DNA from: an uncultured Mycoplasmatota bacterium | GTDB lineage: Bacteria; Bacillota_I; Bacilli_A; RF39; UBA660 | Assembly: GCA_946402735.1 (NCBI GenBank) | Contig: CAMIXH010000001.1 | Location: 378,908-442,907, forward strand | Reading direction: 5' to 3' | DNA: 64,000 nucleotides | In this document: piece by piece, positions 5,379-21,886 of the stretch | How positions within the stretch are numbered: position 1 is the stretch's first letter | Layout: each line of letters opens with the position of its first letter | The notes under the pieces: model-generated | The model's database searches: none | What the model was told of the DNA's origin: nothing | What the model saw: the letters and a program-made list of their open reading frames with translations, nothing else | Translations under genes and position numbers: made by a program

Positions 5379-5828
5379 TTACCTACATCCATTTAATTGT
5401 GTTGTATATGTAGACCCACCCTCAGTAGTATAAGAATCTCCACAATATAAATATACTTTTCCATTTTTATATTTATACCCATCTAAATCATAGACAACAA
5501 TACCTCTGCAAGCAGTTGATTCTTTATAATAAACATCTTTAATTACTTTTCTTCCTTGAAGAGAACTTAAACAAAAATATACTTTATTTTCATCTATAAC
5601 ATTCTTATCTTCTTGACATGCATTTCGATATTCATCATCTATTGGATTTCTACAGTAATCCTCTAAATATAAATTAGCAGCATCAAGTACTTCATTTTCA
5701 CTTACTTTCATAGTATCATCTATAGCACCATTAAATAATTTAACAACACCAGGAATAATCATAATACTAAGCATTCCTATAATTGCAATAACTGCTAATA
5801 TCTCAATTAATGTGAAACCTTTTTTCAT
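5379..5828 (-). CDS. Type IV pilin-like / pseudopilin protein (prepilin N-terminal methylation motif), Cys-rich
   Basis: Starts MKKG-FTLIEILAVIAIIGML (Gly-1, Phe+1, Glu+5). I trimmed the start to ATG 5828, which has AGGTGA upstream; the track ORF runs to 5855. Confidence 0.75.
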   Translation of the reverse strand: MKKGFTLIEILAVIAIIGMLSIMIIPGVVKLFNGAIDDTMKVSENEVLDAANLYLEDYCRNPIDDEYRNACQEDKNVIDENKVYFCLSSLQGRKVIKDVYYKESTACRGIVVYDLDGYKYKNGKVYLYCGDSYTTEGGSTYTTQLNGCR

Positions 5829-5845
5829 ACAATCACCTATTATAT

Positions 5846-5875
5846 ATTTTAACATTAGAGTATGGTCAATTTCAA
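5846..5875 (-). promoter_or_regulatory. Promoter of the 149-aa pilin-like gene
   Basis: Minus strand: TTGAAA, 18 nt spacer, and extended -10 TGTTAAAAT. It lies just downstream of the rpmF terminator. Confidence 0.5.
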
Positions 5876-5883
5876 TACAATAT

Positions 5884-5910
5884 CAAAAAAAGTCAATCTA
5901 TTGATTGACT
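5884..5910 (-). terminator. Rho-independent terminator of rpmF
   Basis: AGTCAATC / GATTGACT 8-bp stem with a 4-nt loop and TTTTTTT tail. It overlaps the stop codon. Confidence 0.75.
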
Positions 5911-6124
5911 ATTTTGTTTCTTCTTTATTAACTTTTAAAGTTTCTTTTCCTTTATAATAACCACACTTTGTACAAGCTCTGTGTGGAGCAACTACAGCAC
6001 CACAATTGCTACATGTAGTTGTAGTAGGAGCAGTTTTCTTTAAATGTGTTCTTCTTTGTCTTTTAGCAGTTTTACTAACTCTTCTAAAAGGTAGTGCACC
6101 AAATAAAGTAATGTTTAATTTCAT
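5909..6124 (-). CDS. rpmF: 50S ribosomal protein L32 with a 8-9 residue N-terminal extension
   Basis: ATG at 6122-6124 with GGAGG 7 nt upstream. Translation is MKLNITLFGALPFRRVSKTAKRQRRTH..CSNCG..CTKCG (zinc ribbon). The track ORF extends further upstream without a Shine-Dalgarno. Confidence 0.9.
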   Translation of the reverse strand: MKLNITLFGALPFRRVSKTAKRQRRTHLKKTAPTTTTCSNCGAVVAPHRACTKCGYYKGKETLKVNKEETK

Positions 6125-6226
6125 TTTTATTCCTCCTTCGCGCGATTTATAGTTTATAAACTTTTTTGCATTGCTTATGTATTTTCTCATAAATATATAA
6201 AAATATCAAGTAAAAAAGATTAAAAA

Positions 6227-7420: not shown

Positions 7421-7433
7421 TTCATCTTTTATT
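7403..7433. terminator. Bidirectional terminator between convergent tmcAL and the pilin-like gene
   Basis: AAAGATGAATT / AATTCATCTTT palindrome flanked by A-runs and T-runs. Confidence 0.7.
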
Positions 7434-8508
7434 TTATTGTACTATCATTATATTCTACATAATATGTATTGTTAGGACAATTTGAGCCATCACATTTTCT
7501 AATAGTACCAAATCTATTATGTGGATCAGTTAATGTACTATCTAATATTTCTATTTTTTGTAATGTCTCAGGATCATTAACCCATGGTTTAGAGAAAGTT
7601 GTCTTTTGAAGACTTCTAGTATAACCAAATATTACCATATTTGAAGTAGATGGACAGTTAGTTCTACATAAATCATTTGATATTTCAATATATACATCTG
7701 CTGGACTATAAGCATCTACTTTTGCACTATAGTTTCCTAAGTATTTATAACCGCTATAATTATCTAAATTAATCCTATTATAATCTGGTTTGTTAGCATA
7801 AGTAATACTTGCTAGTAATTCTTTTTTAGTAGAATCTCTGTATACTTTTACATAACTAGAAGTAGTAAACCTACCAATATCCACAGAAATTACCAAATCA
7901 TCTTCTTCACTACCCCTAGCACCAGAAATTATCCAAGCATGACTATTAGTATATACATAATTATCTTTTGTTGTTTTTAAACATATTTCTTTAACATCTT
8001 CTGTTAGAGAAAAACTACCAAGTGTTGTAATTAATTTATATCTACATCCTGGATTTGCACCTCTATAAGCATCATCTTGTGCTACATGTAATACATCATC
8101 TTCTGCAAGTACTGCTACTTGATCAGCATTACTAATATTAGTAGCAAGTAAATCTCCTTCATCATAAAAGTATTGGTATGTTCCATCTGTTGCATAGAAT
8201 TCAATTACTTTACCTGCTTTATTTAATCTAATTAAATAATCTATAGTTTTTCTTCCACTTAAAGATAATTCTTTTTCAGTACAATCAGAACATCTAGCAT
8301 ATGTAACATCTTTAGTATCAAACATAGAATCCATCATCCATTGTTGTTGAGCTGTTTTATATATTTCTTTACATTCAGTTAAGAATGAATTCTTTTTAGC
8401 ATCATTGAATAACTCTATAATATTTGGAAGTGCAACTATAACAAGTAATGATAAAATTGCAACAACAGCTAATAATTCTACTAATGTAAATCCTTTATTC
8501 TTTTCCAT
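7429..8508 (-). CDS. Type IV pilin-like protein with a large C-terminal extension (359 aa)
   Basis: Starts MEKNKG-FTLVELLAVVAILSLL. The first ~120 aa are paralogous to 8518..9312. Its Shine-Dalgarno AAGGAGA overlaps the upstream stop codon. Confidence 0.75.
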   Translation of the reverse strand: MEKNKGFTLVELLAVVAILSLLVIVALPNIIELFNDAKKNSFLTECKEIYKTAQQQWMMDSMFDTKDVTYARCSDCTEKELSLSGRKTIDYLIRLNKAGKVIEFYATDGTYQYFYDEGDLLATNISNADQVAVLAEDDVLHVAQDDAYRGANPGCRYKLITTLGSFSLTEDVKEICLKTTKDNYVYTNSHAWIISGARGSEEDDLVISVDIGRFTTSSYVKVYRDSTKKELLASITYANKPDYNRINLDNYSGYKYLGNYSAKVDAYSPADVYIEISNDLCRTNCPSTSNMVIFGYTRSLQKTTFSKPWVNDPETLQKIEILDSTLTDPHNRFGTIRKCDGSNCPNNTYYVEYNDSTIK

Positions 8509-8517
8509 ATATTCTCC

Positions 8518-9312
8518 TTAACAAGCACTACCCCATATTTCATATGTCATACCACTAGATATTTCATCACTTGGAAAAACATAACCATTTACATTCCTAT
8601 TATAAAGTAATTCATATGATGTTAAATAATGATTAGGTCCACATGCATATCTTATTGTTTCTGTAGATATACCATATACTCCATCATCAAGAAGATAATC
8701 ATGTACATTGCCATTATATTCTGAAGTTTGAGATTTATTTTCTACTTTAAATCCATATGTATTATAGCTACTATCTATCCATTCTCTCCAAGTCATACCT
8801 GGTTCATAAGTAATTGAATAAGATTTAATCATAAATGTATTTGCATCAACTTGAGCAGTATTTCCTATATATGGTTTATTATTCTCTATTTTAACTTTAC
8901 TATCATCAGCAAGTTCTACAACAGCAGAAGCAGTTTTAATGTTTTCAACATTTAAATCTCCTTCATCATAAATATATTGATAAGTTCCATCTGTTGCATA
9001 AAATTTAGTTACTTTACCAGCTTTATTAAATGTAATTAAATAATCAATTTCTTGTCTTCCACTTAGTTTTAATGATTTACCAGTACAAGTACTACATCTT
9101 TTATATGTTTGTGCTTCTGTTACTACCATAGAATCCATCATCCATTGATTTTGTCCCGTTTTATATATTTCTTTACATTCAGTTAAGAATGAATTCATTT
9201 TAGCATCATTAAACATTGATACTATATTTGGTAAAGCAATAATAACAAGTAATGATAAAATAGCTACTACTGCTAATAACTCAACTAAAGTAAATCCTTT
9301 ATTATTTTTCAT
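8518..9312 (-). CDS. Type IV pilin-like protein (264 aa)
   Basis: Starts MKNNKG-FTLVELLAVVAILSLL. Shares the core FLTECKEIYKT..WMMDSM..FYATDGTYQY with 7429..8508. Has its own promoter. Confidence 0.75.
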   Translation of the reverse strand: MKNNKGFTLVELLAVVAILSLLVIIALPNIVSMFNDAKMNSFLTECKEIYKTGQNQWMMDSMVVTEAQTYKRCSTCTGKSLKLSGRQEIDYLITFNKAGKVTKFYATDGTYQYIYDEGDLNVENIKTASAVVELADDSKVKIENNKPYIGNTAQVDANTFMIKSYSITYEPGMTWREWIDSSYNTYGFKVENKSQTSEYNGNVHDYLLDDGVYGISTETIRYACGPNHYLTSYELLYNRNVNGYVFPSDEISSGMTYEIWGSAC

Positions 9313-12000: not shown

Positions 12001-12035
12001 ATAAAGAAAAAGAAAGTTAATAATAATTAACTTCC
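12001..12035 (-). terminator. Rho-independent terminator after the dnaE-pilin unit
   Basis: GGAAGTTAAT / ATTAACTTTC stem (one mismatch) with a TTTTTCTTT tail. It overlaps the pilin stop codon. Confidence 0.6.
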
Positions 12036-12473
12036 TTGTAATATTTGTCTAATTCTATCAAGTGTTAATCCATTAGTATCAATATTATCTACTAAATCAT
12101 CTACTGATAAATTAGTTATTGATATACCATTAGTATCTCTCTTTTTTAAAGTATTTGTTCCATCCCATACTAACATTTCAATTATTTTTCCACCAGCACT
12201 TACCTTAACATAATAATATAATTGTTTTCCAGTAAGAGGAACTTTATTTTCATCTCCTTCAAGTCTATAAAATACAGTACCATTATCTTCTTTAATAGAT
12301 TGTTTCATAATATTTAAATCAATTGTATTAAATCTTGATTTAATATCAACTATAAATGTTTCTTTCTTACTATTATTAAATAAACTAATTAGATTAGGTA
12401 CTACAAATATAGCAAGAACTGCAAGTATTGCAATTACTGCAAGTAGTTCAATTAAACTAAATCCCTTCTTCAT
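12027..12473 (-). CDS. Type IV pilin-like protein (148 aa, minimal core version of the family)
   Basis: Starts MKKG-FSLIELLAVIAILAVL. It starts 13 nt after the dnaE stop with AAAGGAAAG as Shine-Dalgarno, and is followed by a terminator. Confidence 0.75.
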   Translation of the reverse strand: MKKGFSLIELLAVIAILAVLAIFVVPNLISLFNNSKKETFIVDIKSRFNTIDLNIMKQSIKEDNGTVFYRLEGDENKVPLTGKQLYYYVKVSAGGKIIEMLVWDGTNTLKKRDTNGISITNLSVDDLVDNIDTNGLTLDRIRQILQGS

Positions 12474-18004: not shown

Positions 18005-18032
18005 AAAAAAGCCTATTATTGAGGCTTTTTTT
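18005..18032 (-). terminator. Rho-independent terminator after the 572-aa gene
   Basis: AAAAAGCCT / AGGCTTTTT 9-bp stem with a 7-nt loop that contains the stop codon, flanked by a U-run. Confidence 0.65.
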
Positions 18033-19734
18033 CTAAAACTAATTTTCCACCAAGCTTACAGAATTTTTCTTTTAACATATCTCTAGTTTCTAAATATGGT
18101 TTAATTTCTTCATCATATCCCAAGATTAGATATATTTCTCTCTTCTTAGCTGATGTTAATTCTGTACTAGATAAAGATGAGGTTAACTTTCTAAATAATA
18201 GTTCATATTTCTTTTCAATAACTTTAATTTGTTTTTCATTAGCATTAATTAATCTTCTAATTTCTTCTAAGATTATATCATCTGCTTTATTTGAAATACT
18301 TCTATCAATTGTTTTAGCATAATCTGTTTCATCTGTAATAGTTGGAACACTAATTCCTTTTTCTAATTCTTCTTTAGATAATTTTAGATTTACTATTGCT
18401 TCTAAACCTTTATTAGCATCATATACATATGCTTGAGCAGTTTTATCTGATTCATATAAGTTCTGAGCATCCCATGCACTTGATCCACATGGTGAACCAT
18501 TTCTAACTACTTCTACTCCATTTTCAGCAATAAATCTTTCAGTTGCATTATGTAGATGTGCAGCATGAATAACAACATGATCCACAGCTTTAGCATCATC
18601 TCTAAACATCATTGTTGGAAGTTCAGATAATTTTTTATCACTAAGTGGTTTCCCATCCGGTCCTTTACCATGACAAGCAATAATTAAATTATTATTCCAA
18701 CGTTTAGCATTTGCAAATCTTAAATCTTTTACATCACAACTAATTTTTACTTTAGGATCATCTTTATATCTATAATATAATTGCATGTATAACATATAGT
18801 CTGTTAAGAAATCATGATTTCCTGGTTGGAACATAAGATGTAATACTTCACAATTCTTTTTCATTCTTTCAATAGACCAAATATGAGCAGCAATTCCACT
18901 AGATATCATTTGTTGGAATCTAGTATCATTATGTTGTTCAGTACCAGCAGTAGTTGTATTTTGTTCTGTATCTGTATTAAAGAAGTCATTTCCAATAGTC
19001 ATAATTACTTCTTTTGGTTTATACAAATTAACAACTTGTTCTGCTTGTATAATCATTTTAATATATCTATATAAAGCTTTTTTATAATCGTATGCATCTT
19101 TTGAATCAAACTTACTAGCAAGTTTTCCTAAATGTAATTCAATATCTGGTATAAATACTAGTTTTTCTGCATTATATTTTGTTTTTGTTTTTCTTGTTTG
19201 AGTTGGTGTTAATTGACTTTGTAATATAGCAGTATATACATTTTCATCAATTAAGAATTCTTCTAATGCTTGTTTATACAAATTGAAGAAATAATCATCT
19301 GATATAGCATTAACTGGTTTTCTTTTTACAAATCTAATAGTAAATTTTGATTGATAAGTTTGTTTAACTTCAGTAACTTTTACAGGGAAACGCATCTTTT
19401 TCATTTGATCTTCATCATAACCCATTTCTTCTATTTCAGAAGGGGTTAAGATTTTCTCTTCTTTTACAGGTACCATCCAATAACCTGTATCAATTCCCTT
19501 TATTTCCCATTCCATTGGGTTTTTATGGAAGAAAGAATATAAGAATTCATCTTTAGATACAATATCCATTATTTTCTTTCTTGCTACTTCTAATGAATCT
19601 TGGGGGTCAACATGAAAGACATTTTTCAAGTCATCTTCACTTATTGCAAAAAAAGTTCTTTCAGGTTTAGTACCCTCCATTACTTCTACTTCAAATTTAA
19701 GATCTAGTAATTCCTTACTATATTCCTTTGCCAT
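18016..19734 (-). CDS. Calcineurin-like metallophosphoesterase with unknown ~190-aa N-terminal domain and coiled-coil C-terminus
   Basis: Phosphoesterase motif series IPDIELH, IGNDFFNTD, PGNHDF, ACHGKG, HAAHLHN. No signal peptide. Has its own Shine-Dalgarno GGAGGT and terminator. Confidence 0.5.
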   Translation of the reverse strand: MAKEYSKELLDLKFEVEVMEGTKPERTFFAISEDDLKNVFHVDPQDSLEVARKKIMDIVSKDEFLYSFFHKNPMEWEIKGIDTGYWMVPVKEEKILTPSEIEEMGYDEDQMKKMRFPVKVTEVKQTYQSKFTIRFVKRKPVNAISDDYFFNLYKQALEEFLIDENVYTAILQSQLTPTQTRKTKTKYNAEKLVFIPDIELHLGKLASKFDSKDAYDYKKALYRYIKMIIQAEQVVNLYKPKEVIMTIGNDFFNTDTEQNTTTAGTEQHNDTRFQQMISSGIAAHIWSIERMKKNCEVLHLMFQPGNHDFLTDYMLYMQLYYRYKDDPKVKISCDVKDLRFANAKRWNNNLIIACHGKGPDGKPLSDKKLSELPTMMFRDDAKAVDHVVIHAAHLHNATERFIAENGVEVVRNGSPCGSSAWDAQNLYESDKTAQAYVYDANKGLEAIVNLKLSKEELEKGISVPTITDETDYAKTIDRSISNKADDIILEEIRRLINANEKQIKVIEKKYELLFRKLTSSLSSTELTSAKKREIYLILGYDEEIKPYLETRDMLKEKFCKLGGKLVLEKKPQ

Positions 19735-20995: not shown

Positions 20996-21280
20996 TTAGT
21001 TCTCTAAAACGCTTACTTGTTTTTTATCTTTTCCTTTTCTTTCGAACTTAACGTTTCCAGCAACTTTAGCATATAATGTATGATCTTTTCCCATACCTAC
21101 ATTTGTTCCAGGATAAACTTTAGTTCCTCTTTGACGATAGATTATTGCGCCAGCTTTACAAACTTGACCGTCTGATAACTTAGCACCTAATCTACGACCA
21201 GCAGAATCTCTACCATTCTTTGTAGATCCAACACCTTTTTTAGATGCGAATAATTGTATATTTAAATTCATTTTAATCAT
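20996..21280 (-). CDS. rpmA: 50S ribosomal protein L27 with N-terminal propeptide
   Basis: [33 protein letters not shown]. The extension ahead of ASKKG is typical of Firmicutes pro-L27. The start could be M1 (21280) or M4 (21271). Confidence 0.95.
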
Positions 21281-21587
21281 GGTTTTCCTCCTTAATATCT
21301 ATATTTTTATCATAATTTTCTTTTAGTTCGTATATTAAACTAACTAAATTATTAAGTAAACTATTAGTTATATTATCTTTCTTGACATTAACAATTTTTA
21401 AATCGTTACCATCAGTATAACTTATAGCATCTTTATCTATTTCAAGTATTCCATTTATTGTAGTTATTATCATTGTACTAAATGATGCACATACAATATC
21501 TTTTCCATAACCATCATATCCTGCATGACCATGACATTCAATACTTGAAATAATATTATTTTCTTTATTAATTCTTACTTTTATCAT
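21273..21587 (-). CDS. prp: Ribosomal-processing cysteine protease Prp (YsxB family)
   Basis: 104 aa lying between rplU and rpmA. Has the His/Cys dyad context [20 protein letters not shown]. Confidence 0.85.
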
Positions 21588-21886
21588 TATTTACTAATAG
21601 ATTTAATAAGTATTTTTGTATAAGGTTGTCTATGTCCTTGAGTTTTTCTATATTTCTTTTTAGGTTTATATTTGAAAACTAGAATTTTCTTTTGTTTACC
21701 ATGTTTTAAAACCTTAGCAACAACCTTAGCTCCTTTAACAGTAGGAGTACCTACTTTACCATCAACATATAAAACTTCATCAAAAACAACTTCTTTATCT
21801 ACTTCTTGGTCTAATTTTTCAACATATAGTTCTTGTCCTTCTTCAACCATATATTGTTTTCCACCAGTAACAAATATTGCTTTCAT
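21587..21886 (-). CDS. rplU: 50S ribosomal protein L21
   Basis: [33 protein letters not shown]. Shine-Dalgarno is AAGGAGG. Confidence 0.95.

Follow-up and report, generated by a model that had tools for sequence, protein, structure and literature searches.

Prp (MEROPS C108) is the protease responsible for pre-bL27 processing in Staphylococcus aureus, Streptococcus pneumoniae, and other Firmicutes, and the N-terminus of bL27 reaches the peptidyl transferase center. Known substrates include S. aureus L27 (KLNLQFF'ASKK, where the prime marks the cleaved bond) and Erysipelothrix L27 (LDIQLF'ASKK), and the general motif is (D/N)LQ(F/L)F'A (PMC9405229). S. aureus Prp has been crystallized with Ac-KLNLQFF, and in that structure the surroundings of P1, P2, P4, and P6 are hydrophobic, the side chains of P1 and P2 lying buried in interior pockets; P3 Gln sits in a hydrogen-bonded pocket, P5 Asn has a structural role, and P1' is limited in size, small residues being typical at P1' and P2' (PMC9261936). 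Prps are considered highly specific, each for its own L27, and S. aureus Prp reportedly fails on substrates in which P3 Gln is replaced with Ala or Glu (unpublished data quoted in PMC9261936). In S. aureus, L27 is deleterious when pre-cleaved as well as when it cannot be cleaved, a result interpreted as pointing to a chaperone-like role of Prp (PMC9261936).

The scaffold protein gp46 (KFNLQFF'ADQS) and the capsid protein gp47 (KLNLQHF'ASNN) of phage 80alpha are also cut by host Prp, and FlhB has been proposed as a Prp substrate because of an N-terminal L27-like motif that ends in F'A and is absent from Prp-less bacteria (PMC9405229). FlhB is the only extra substrate named in that 2022 review (PMC9405229), and in a 2025 preprint, workers in the Prp field state that it is not known whether the enzyme has others (PMC12324487). 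The described precursor of L32 is mitochondrial: the m-AAA protease must remove the N-terminal region of bL32m (MrpL32) before the large subunit assembles, and 71 residues are lost as processive, ATP-dependent degradation proceeds until it stalls against the folded zinc domain; the extension also serves import (PMC5438985). In the literature that we searched on Prp and L32 or bL32, on pre-L27 and L32, and on additional Prp substrates, nothing describes a pro-L32 from bacteria. A previous sequence-only reading of the DNA analyzed here had likewise known of no pro-L32, which holds for bacteria in the literature searched but not for mitochondria, where MrpL32 is a well-known L32 precursor (PMC5438985).

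The window (the whole 64,000-nucleotide stretch of DNA that we analyzed, from an uncultured Mycoplasmatota bacterium) carries an rpmF gene at 5909..6124 on the minus strand. By ORF and translation it encodes a 71-residue bL32 that includes an 8-residue leader, and it ends with a TAG stop codon (5909-5911). Translation from the ATG at 6124-6122 gives MKLNITLFGALPFRRVSKTAKRQRR..., and the full product reads MKLNITLFGALPFRRVSKTAKRQRRTHLKK...CSNCG...CTKCGYYKGK... with the A-x-P-x-R-R tail and the CxxC...CxxC zinc ribbon of the bL32 family; the ribbon cysteines (Cys38, 41, 51, and 54) were invariant in our alignment (A1). The N-terminus is MKLNITLF/GALPFRR (the slash marks a predicted cut), that is, eight leader residues followed by Gly9 and Ala10. 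Residues 10-64 matched positions 1-55 of the 56 in the Pfam Ribosomal_L32p profile (PF01783, E 1.1e-20), so nine residues lie ahead of the canonical domain. The earlier count of 8-9 extra residues is thus correct in that nine precede the Pfam domain, but the predicted propeptide itself comprises eight, with Gly9 being extra relative to an A-V-P N-terminus.

A Shine-Dalgarno sequence, GGAGG (6132..6136, minus strand), stands 7 nt from the leader ATG (6122-6124). We reproduced these coordinates, which the sequence-only reading had given for the only plausible start, and noted that the ORF remains open upstream to an in-frame ATG at 6188-6190 (a 93-aa form, P0001) that has no Shine-Dalgarno sequence. 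The residues added by the 93-aa call (..SREGGIK) are the Shine-Dalgarno region translated in frame. Downstream of the leader ATG, the codons up to Ala10 read AAA TTA AAC ATT ACT TTA TTT GGT; none is ATG, GTG, or TTG, in agreement with the same reading. Over-extended rpmF calls that correspond to 6125-6190 (minus strand) in the window are common (86-94 aa 'L32' entries; P0001, P0004, P0007, P0021, and P0028). For annotation, the approximately 70-aa 'L32' entries in Bacilli MAGs would be pro-proteins and the 90-aa versions over-extended gene calls.

Directly 3' of rpmF lies a hairpin resembling an intrinsic terminator (5891..5910, minus strand), with an 8-bp stem and a T-rich tail (0.1 expected in shuffles). 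This hairpin and the divergent upstream neighbor indicate that rpmF is monocistronic in the window. A candidate sigma-70-type promoter (6181..6209, minus strand; TTGATA, a 17-nt spacer, and TG-GAAAAT) is weak, matching 9/12 positions, which is not above the shuffle background. The gene is isolated here, flanked by a pilin-like gene and by a divergent gene of 379 aa. In another leader-bearing lineage (L161-L163, 9526-9996), rpmF directly follows a YceD/DUF177-like gene, as in the classical yceD-rpmF pair.

With the window L32 as query we retrieved 186 relatives, most of which start with MKL[DN][IL][TQ]LF followed by GALP[FA]RR or AVP[FA]RR; the remoter ones start with MAVPFRR. HMMER, run exhaustively over 1.84 billion cluster representatives, placed the leader in several separate 50%-identity clusters (P0121, P0125, P0129, P0142, P0144, and P0246), and a profile built from divergent leader-bearing L32 sequences recovered 120 more sequences, all with the leader. 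At least 263 distinct L32 sequences (counted as 90%-identity cluster representatives that match the leader pattern) begin M-K-L-[D/N]-[I/L]-[Q/T]-[L/M]-F/[A/G]; these come from uncultured gut and rumen Bacilli. In the rpmF comparison across relatives that the sequence-only reading had proposed, the extension is conserved. Named sources were limited to uncultured 'MAG: Bacilli bacterium' entries from gut and rumen samples, and leader-bearing proteins have already been deposited, uncommented, as '50S ribosomal protein L32 [Bacilli bacterium]' (e.g. MDY6071613.1).

Across the 263 sequences, the leader has Met or Leu at P8, Lys at P7 (83%), Leu at P6 (97%), Asp or Asn at P5 (98%), Ile or Leu at P4 (100%), Gln (78%) or Thr (20%) at P3, and Leu or Met at P2 (97%). 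Phe occupies P1 in 263/263 and is followed by Ala (68%) or Gly (32%) at P1'. Mean column entropy was 0.70 bit for the leader and 1.03 bit for mature L32. We read 22 leader-bearing genes at the DNA level (the window and metagenome loci), and in 22/22 a Shine-Dalgarno sequence lay 6-9 nt ahead of the leader ATG and never before the A-V-P codons. Among these genes the leader codons vary synonymously while the peptide is kept: Leu is encoded by TTA, CTT, CTA, or TTG, Asn by AAT or AAC, Asp by GAT or GAC, Ile by ATT or ATC, Phe by TTT or TTC, and Thr by ACA or ACT. The position of the Shine-Dalgarno sequence and this synonymous variation exclude a mis-called start; judged from its sequence, the L32 leader is translated and under purifying selection.

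At least four sequence subtypes of L32 (..THLKK.., ..SHNA[LMI].., ..THYKI.., and others) include members with the leader, and leaderless close relatives of these subtypes occur among both the protein matches and the metagenome loci. This distribution implies that the leader has been gained or lost repeatedly.

A Prp substrate is expected to carry a short extension (approximately 8-15 aa) at its very N-terminus that orthologs from leaderless or Prp-less lineages lack; the L32 leader has 8 aa and is absent from MAVPFRR and MGALPFRR relatives. The predicted propeptide, MKLNITLF (P8-P1), is encoded at 6101..6124 on the minus strand, with the predicted scissile bond Phe8/Gly9 falling between nucleotides 6101 and 6100. 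In alignment A1 the leader Phe shares a column with the initiator Met of leaderless L32 (MAVPFRR and M-GALPFRR), so the predicted cut after Phe would yield an ordinary mature N-terminus. Methionine aminopeptidase leaves AVPFRR on ordinary L32. The commoner form of leader-bearing L32 (form 1; F/AVP[FA]R, 180 sequences) has exactly this predicted product, AVPFRR, identical to Met-trimmed ordinary L32. Form 2 (F/GALP[FA]RR, 86 sequences), to which the window belongs, has one additional small residue at the junction. It had been claimed that Phe plus a small residue stand exactly at the mature N-terminus; this is true of the related F/AVP form, but in the window form Gly9 is one residue extra. A metagenomic leaderless L32 (L093, 1175-1360) starts M-GALPFRR and can serve as a natural control for what cleavage is predicted to yield; GALPFRR is thus a naturally occurring mature N-terminus too.

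We also considered whether the leader might be a signal peptide or a lipoprotein leader and rejected both, as it has eight residues, no lipobox, and no h-region.

An rplU-prp-rpmA operon lies on the minus strand of the window, with its prp and pro-L27 genes 15 kb from rpmF. Its first gene is rplU (bL21; 21587..21886; PF00829, E 1.1e-36), followed by prp (21273..21587; PF04327, E 1.1e-22), which encodes a ribosomal-processing cysteine protease of 104 aa, and rpmA (20996..21280), which encodes a pro-bL27 whose propeptide (21248-21280) is followed by ASKKGVGST. The placement of prp between rplU and rpmA, with a GHAG...DIVCAS dyad, was as previously described. In an alignment with S. aureus Prp (4PEO/7KLD) the GHA (His) and DIVCA (Cys) segments are conserved, and the catalytic His and Cys are therefore encoded on the same contig as the leader-bearing rpmF. 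An L21 leader RNA (RF00559; 21895..21970, minus strand; 49.1 bits against a gathering threshold of 36) directly upstream of rplU suggests that the operon for Prp and pro-L27 is autoregulated, as is usual in Firmicutes. The three genes rplU-prp-rpmA also occur on a second contig (L086), with an L27 reading MKFLNLNIQLF/ASKK, 9.4 kb from an L32 gene reading MRLDIQLF/GALPARR. The L32 leader, L27, and Prp were found together on these two contigs only.

Within the clade, the L27 consensus xLNIQLF/ASKK holds in nearly all of 120 relatives, with P3 Gln and P1' Ala in 120/120. The likeness of the L32 extension to the L27 propeptide, first pointed out for the window alone, extends to this clade, the window L32 leader agreeing with the same-clade L27 propeptide at P1, P2, P4, P5, and P6. 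An N-terminal core of [DN][LI][QT][LMIF]F[AG] was confined to L27 and L32 genes among 39,555 candidate starts (from ORFs of at least 50 aa) in 2.36 Mb of Firmicute DNA (the window and 163 loci); a much looser N-terminal pattern gave only scattered, unconvincing background matches in the same 2.36 Mb. By eye, the 5' nucleotides of rpmA and rpmF are identical at approximately 21/30 positions, and the similarity ends upstream at the AAA codon before each ATG. We looked at this identity for gene conversion and attribute it to the shared peptide and AT-rich codon usage.

The window L32 (P6 Leu, P5 Asn, P4 Ile, P2 Leu, P1 Phe, P1' Gly, and P2' Ala) fits the structural requirements of Prp except at P3. 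Set against the Prp motif, its L-N-I-T-L-F'G has Thr in place of Gln at P3 and a small, compatible Gly at P1', and form 1 (L-[DN]-[IL]-Q-[LM]-F'A, 180 sequences) fits fully, with P3 Gln in 180/180 and P1' Ala in all 180. At P3, form 2 has Thr in 53 of its 86 sequences, Gln in 28, Glu in 3, Cys in 1, and Val in 1; its other positions are P1 Phe (86/86), P2 Leu (82/86), P4 Ile (84/86), P5 Asn or Asp (86/86), and P6 Leu (86/86). Given the P3 demand of S. aureus Prp, P3 Thr and P1' Gly make the window L32 a less certain, or slower, substrate than the F/AVP form. That everything but P3 is essentially fixed in form 2 argues for continued recognition, through a tolerant P3 pocket, or for slower cleavage, and not for decay of the signal. 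On the other side of the junction, P2'-P4' of L32 (A-L-P or V-P-F) differ from the S-K-K of L27.

Some L27 leaders of the clade have Arg or Lys at P2 (LNIQRF/AHVK and LDIQKF/AHVK; P0332, P0334, P0339, P0344, P0368, P0376, and P0381). The corresponding pocket of S. aureus Prp is hydrophobic, which hints at divergent Prp specificity within the group.

These patterns support what the sequence-only reading had proposed: rpmF probably encodes a pro-bL32 with a propeptide of the bL27 type that is cleaved by Prp, making L32 a second ribosomal Prp substrate. A broader reading, which we favor with somewhat less assurance, is that Prp matures both bL27 and bL32 by way of one portable propeptide in a large radiation of uncultured Bacilli from gut and rumen, and that this propeptide has been repeatedly gained or lost on L32. 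The enzyme and the leader are familiar; the carrier protein, L32, is new, and the P3 and P1' variants are unusual.

As in the pre-bL27/Prp system, a 50S protein carries a short propeptide of the type L-(D/N)-(L/I)-Q-(L/F)-F ahead of a small residue, prp is located between rplU and rpmA, and the predicted L32 product has the N-terminus of its leaderless orthologs. The carrier here is instead bL32, a zinc-ribbon protein next to uL22, whose gene is unlinked to prp (15 kb); the window L32 has P3 Thr and P1' Gly, and its cleavage is a prediction. Phage 80alpha gp46 and gp47 similarly illustrate that an L27-type leader is portable onto unrelated proteins with a variable P' side, but there a phage exploits a host enzyme, whereas the carrier here is a host ribosomal protein and is vertically conserved in a large clade. 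A scan of IMG/VR viral contigs found no credible N-terminal L-[DN]-I-T-L-F-[GA] leader, its 74 matches being internal or out of frame. As with FlhB, a further cellular Prp substrate is proposed from an N-terminal motif, and for both the proposal is bioinformatic; FlhB is a flagellar export protein, whereas L32 is ribosomal and has an exact junction with a known mature N-terminus. MrpL32 shares with the bacterial protein its synthesis as a precursor with an N-terminal extension. It differs in having a long unstructured presequence, a site set by structure rather than by any sequence motif, and an unrelated protease, and the window L32 leader, 8 aa long with a position-specific conserved motif, is not of the mitochondrial type.

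The leader could instead be translated but retained, as a permanent N-terminal extension of bL32 in the window's subclade, either a relic or a co-option of an L27-like propeptide, that is accommodated on or in the ribosome. Such retention would be in keeping with the relaxed P3 and the Gly rather than Ala at P1' in the window's subclade, given the intolerance of S. aureus Prp for P3 Ala or Glu. However, relaxation is confined to P3, and the pattern at P1, P2, P4, P5, and P6 is the one expected under continued protease recognition. The junction also coincides with the N-terminus of leaderless relatives, including M-GALPFRR, and mitochondrial L32 with an extension cannot assemble until it is removed. 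That MrpL32 must lose its N-terminal region suggests that L32 cannot assemble while it carries an N-terminal extension, and we regard retention as unlikely, if not negligibly so. The two outcomes predict different L32 peptides: if the leader is cleaved, N-terminal peptides GALPFR, AVPFR, and AVPAR are expected; if it is retained, LNITLFGALPFR or L[DN][IL]QLFAVPFR, and the window L32 then begins (M)KLNITLFGALPFR.

The leader might also be removed by a protease other than Prp, such as an Rrp-like L27-processing enzyme or a general peptidase. There is a precedent in S. pneumoniae TIGR4, where Rrp, a second protease gained by horizontal transfer, matures bL27 without Prp (bioRxiv 10.64898/2026.08.10.744006), and P3 Thr may suit Prp poorly. 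Even so, the leader copies the Prp recognition positions of the crystal structure, and in each of the two cases examined the contig also encodes Prp, so that a different enzyme seems to us quite improbable. The last possibility, that homologs would show translation initiating at a non-canonical codon next to ALPFRR and that the 'leader' is 5' UTR, had been allowed for in the sequence-only reading. Nothing but the rarity of N-terminal extensions on L32 speaks for such an artifact, and it has very little chance of being correct: no ATG, GTG, or TTG separates the ATG from Ala10, all 22 genes have a Shine-Dalgarno sequence at a spacing that suits the leader ATG, substitutions within the leader are synonymous, and the leader is as conserved as the protein.

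Under the preferred reading, cleavage of the leader by Prp, translation from the ATG at 6122-6124 would produce a pro-bL32, MKLNITLF-GALPFRR..., in which Prp (21273..21587) would recognize P6 Leu, P5 Asn, P4 Ile, P2 Leu, and P1 Phe, as on pro-bL27. A cut after Phe8 would leave a mature bL32 starting with Gly-Ala-Leu-Pro (Ala-Val-Pro in the commoner form). By analogy with bL27 and MrpL32, removal of the leader would probably be needed before or during insertion of the basic bL32 N-terminal tail into the 50S subunit, and Prp would then gate two large-subunit proteins. We infer the L32 cleavage itself, the enzyme responsible, and the role in assembly from the patterns described above. bL32 has been modeled from residue 2 in the chloroplast ribosome, it adjoins uL22, and the domain IV root requires it to be placed correctly; bL32 and uL22 are both absent from E. 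coli pre-50S particles that have a misfolded domain IV root and lack uL2 (PMC11723945).

On the question of why Firmicutes make bL27 as a precursor, a leader on a second ribosomal protein offers a natural comparison between an assembly checkpoint and a chaperone handle. Because the bL32 N-terminus is not at the peptidyl transferase center, the propeptide and Prp would, if this reading is true, serve assembly control or chaperoning generally and not only keep unfinished L27 from the catalytic center. The L27-type leader would then be transplantable between proteins, and inhibition of Prp, an antibiotic target, would strike two ribosomal proteins in these lineages.

The closest relatives of the window by DnaE (67-74% identity) are rabbit-gut and rumen MAGs labeled Bacilli or Erysipelotrichaceae. 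Even at this identity the gene order around dnaE (window 2500-25400 compared with L001-L004) is not conserved, and no L32, L27, or Prp gene was present in any of 80 loci that extended 10 kb to either side of DnaE homologs. The lack of dnaE synteny and of rpmF or rplU-prp-rpmA within 10 kb in L001-L004 indicates rapid rearrangement in this group.

Elsewhere in the window, a 572-aa ORF (18016-19734, minus strand) between class II aminoacyl-tRNA synthetase-like and rnhB-like genes had no Pfam match at E <= 1e-5. Four ORFs on the minus strand (5379-5855, 7429-8508, 8518-9312, and 12027-12473) contain prepilin-type N-terminal methylation motifs (KGFTLIE / GFTLVE; PF07963). They are dispersed, unusually so, around rpmF, polA, and dnaE and probably encode competence or type IV pseudopilins.
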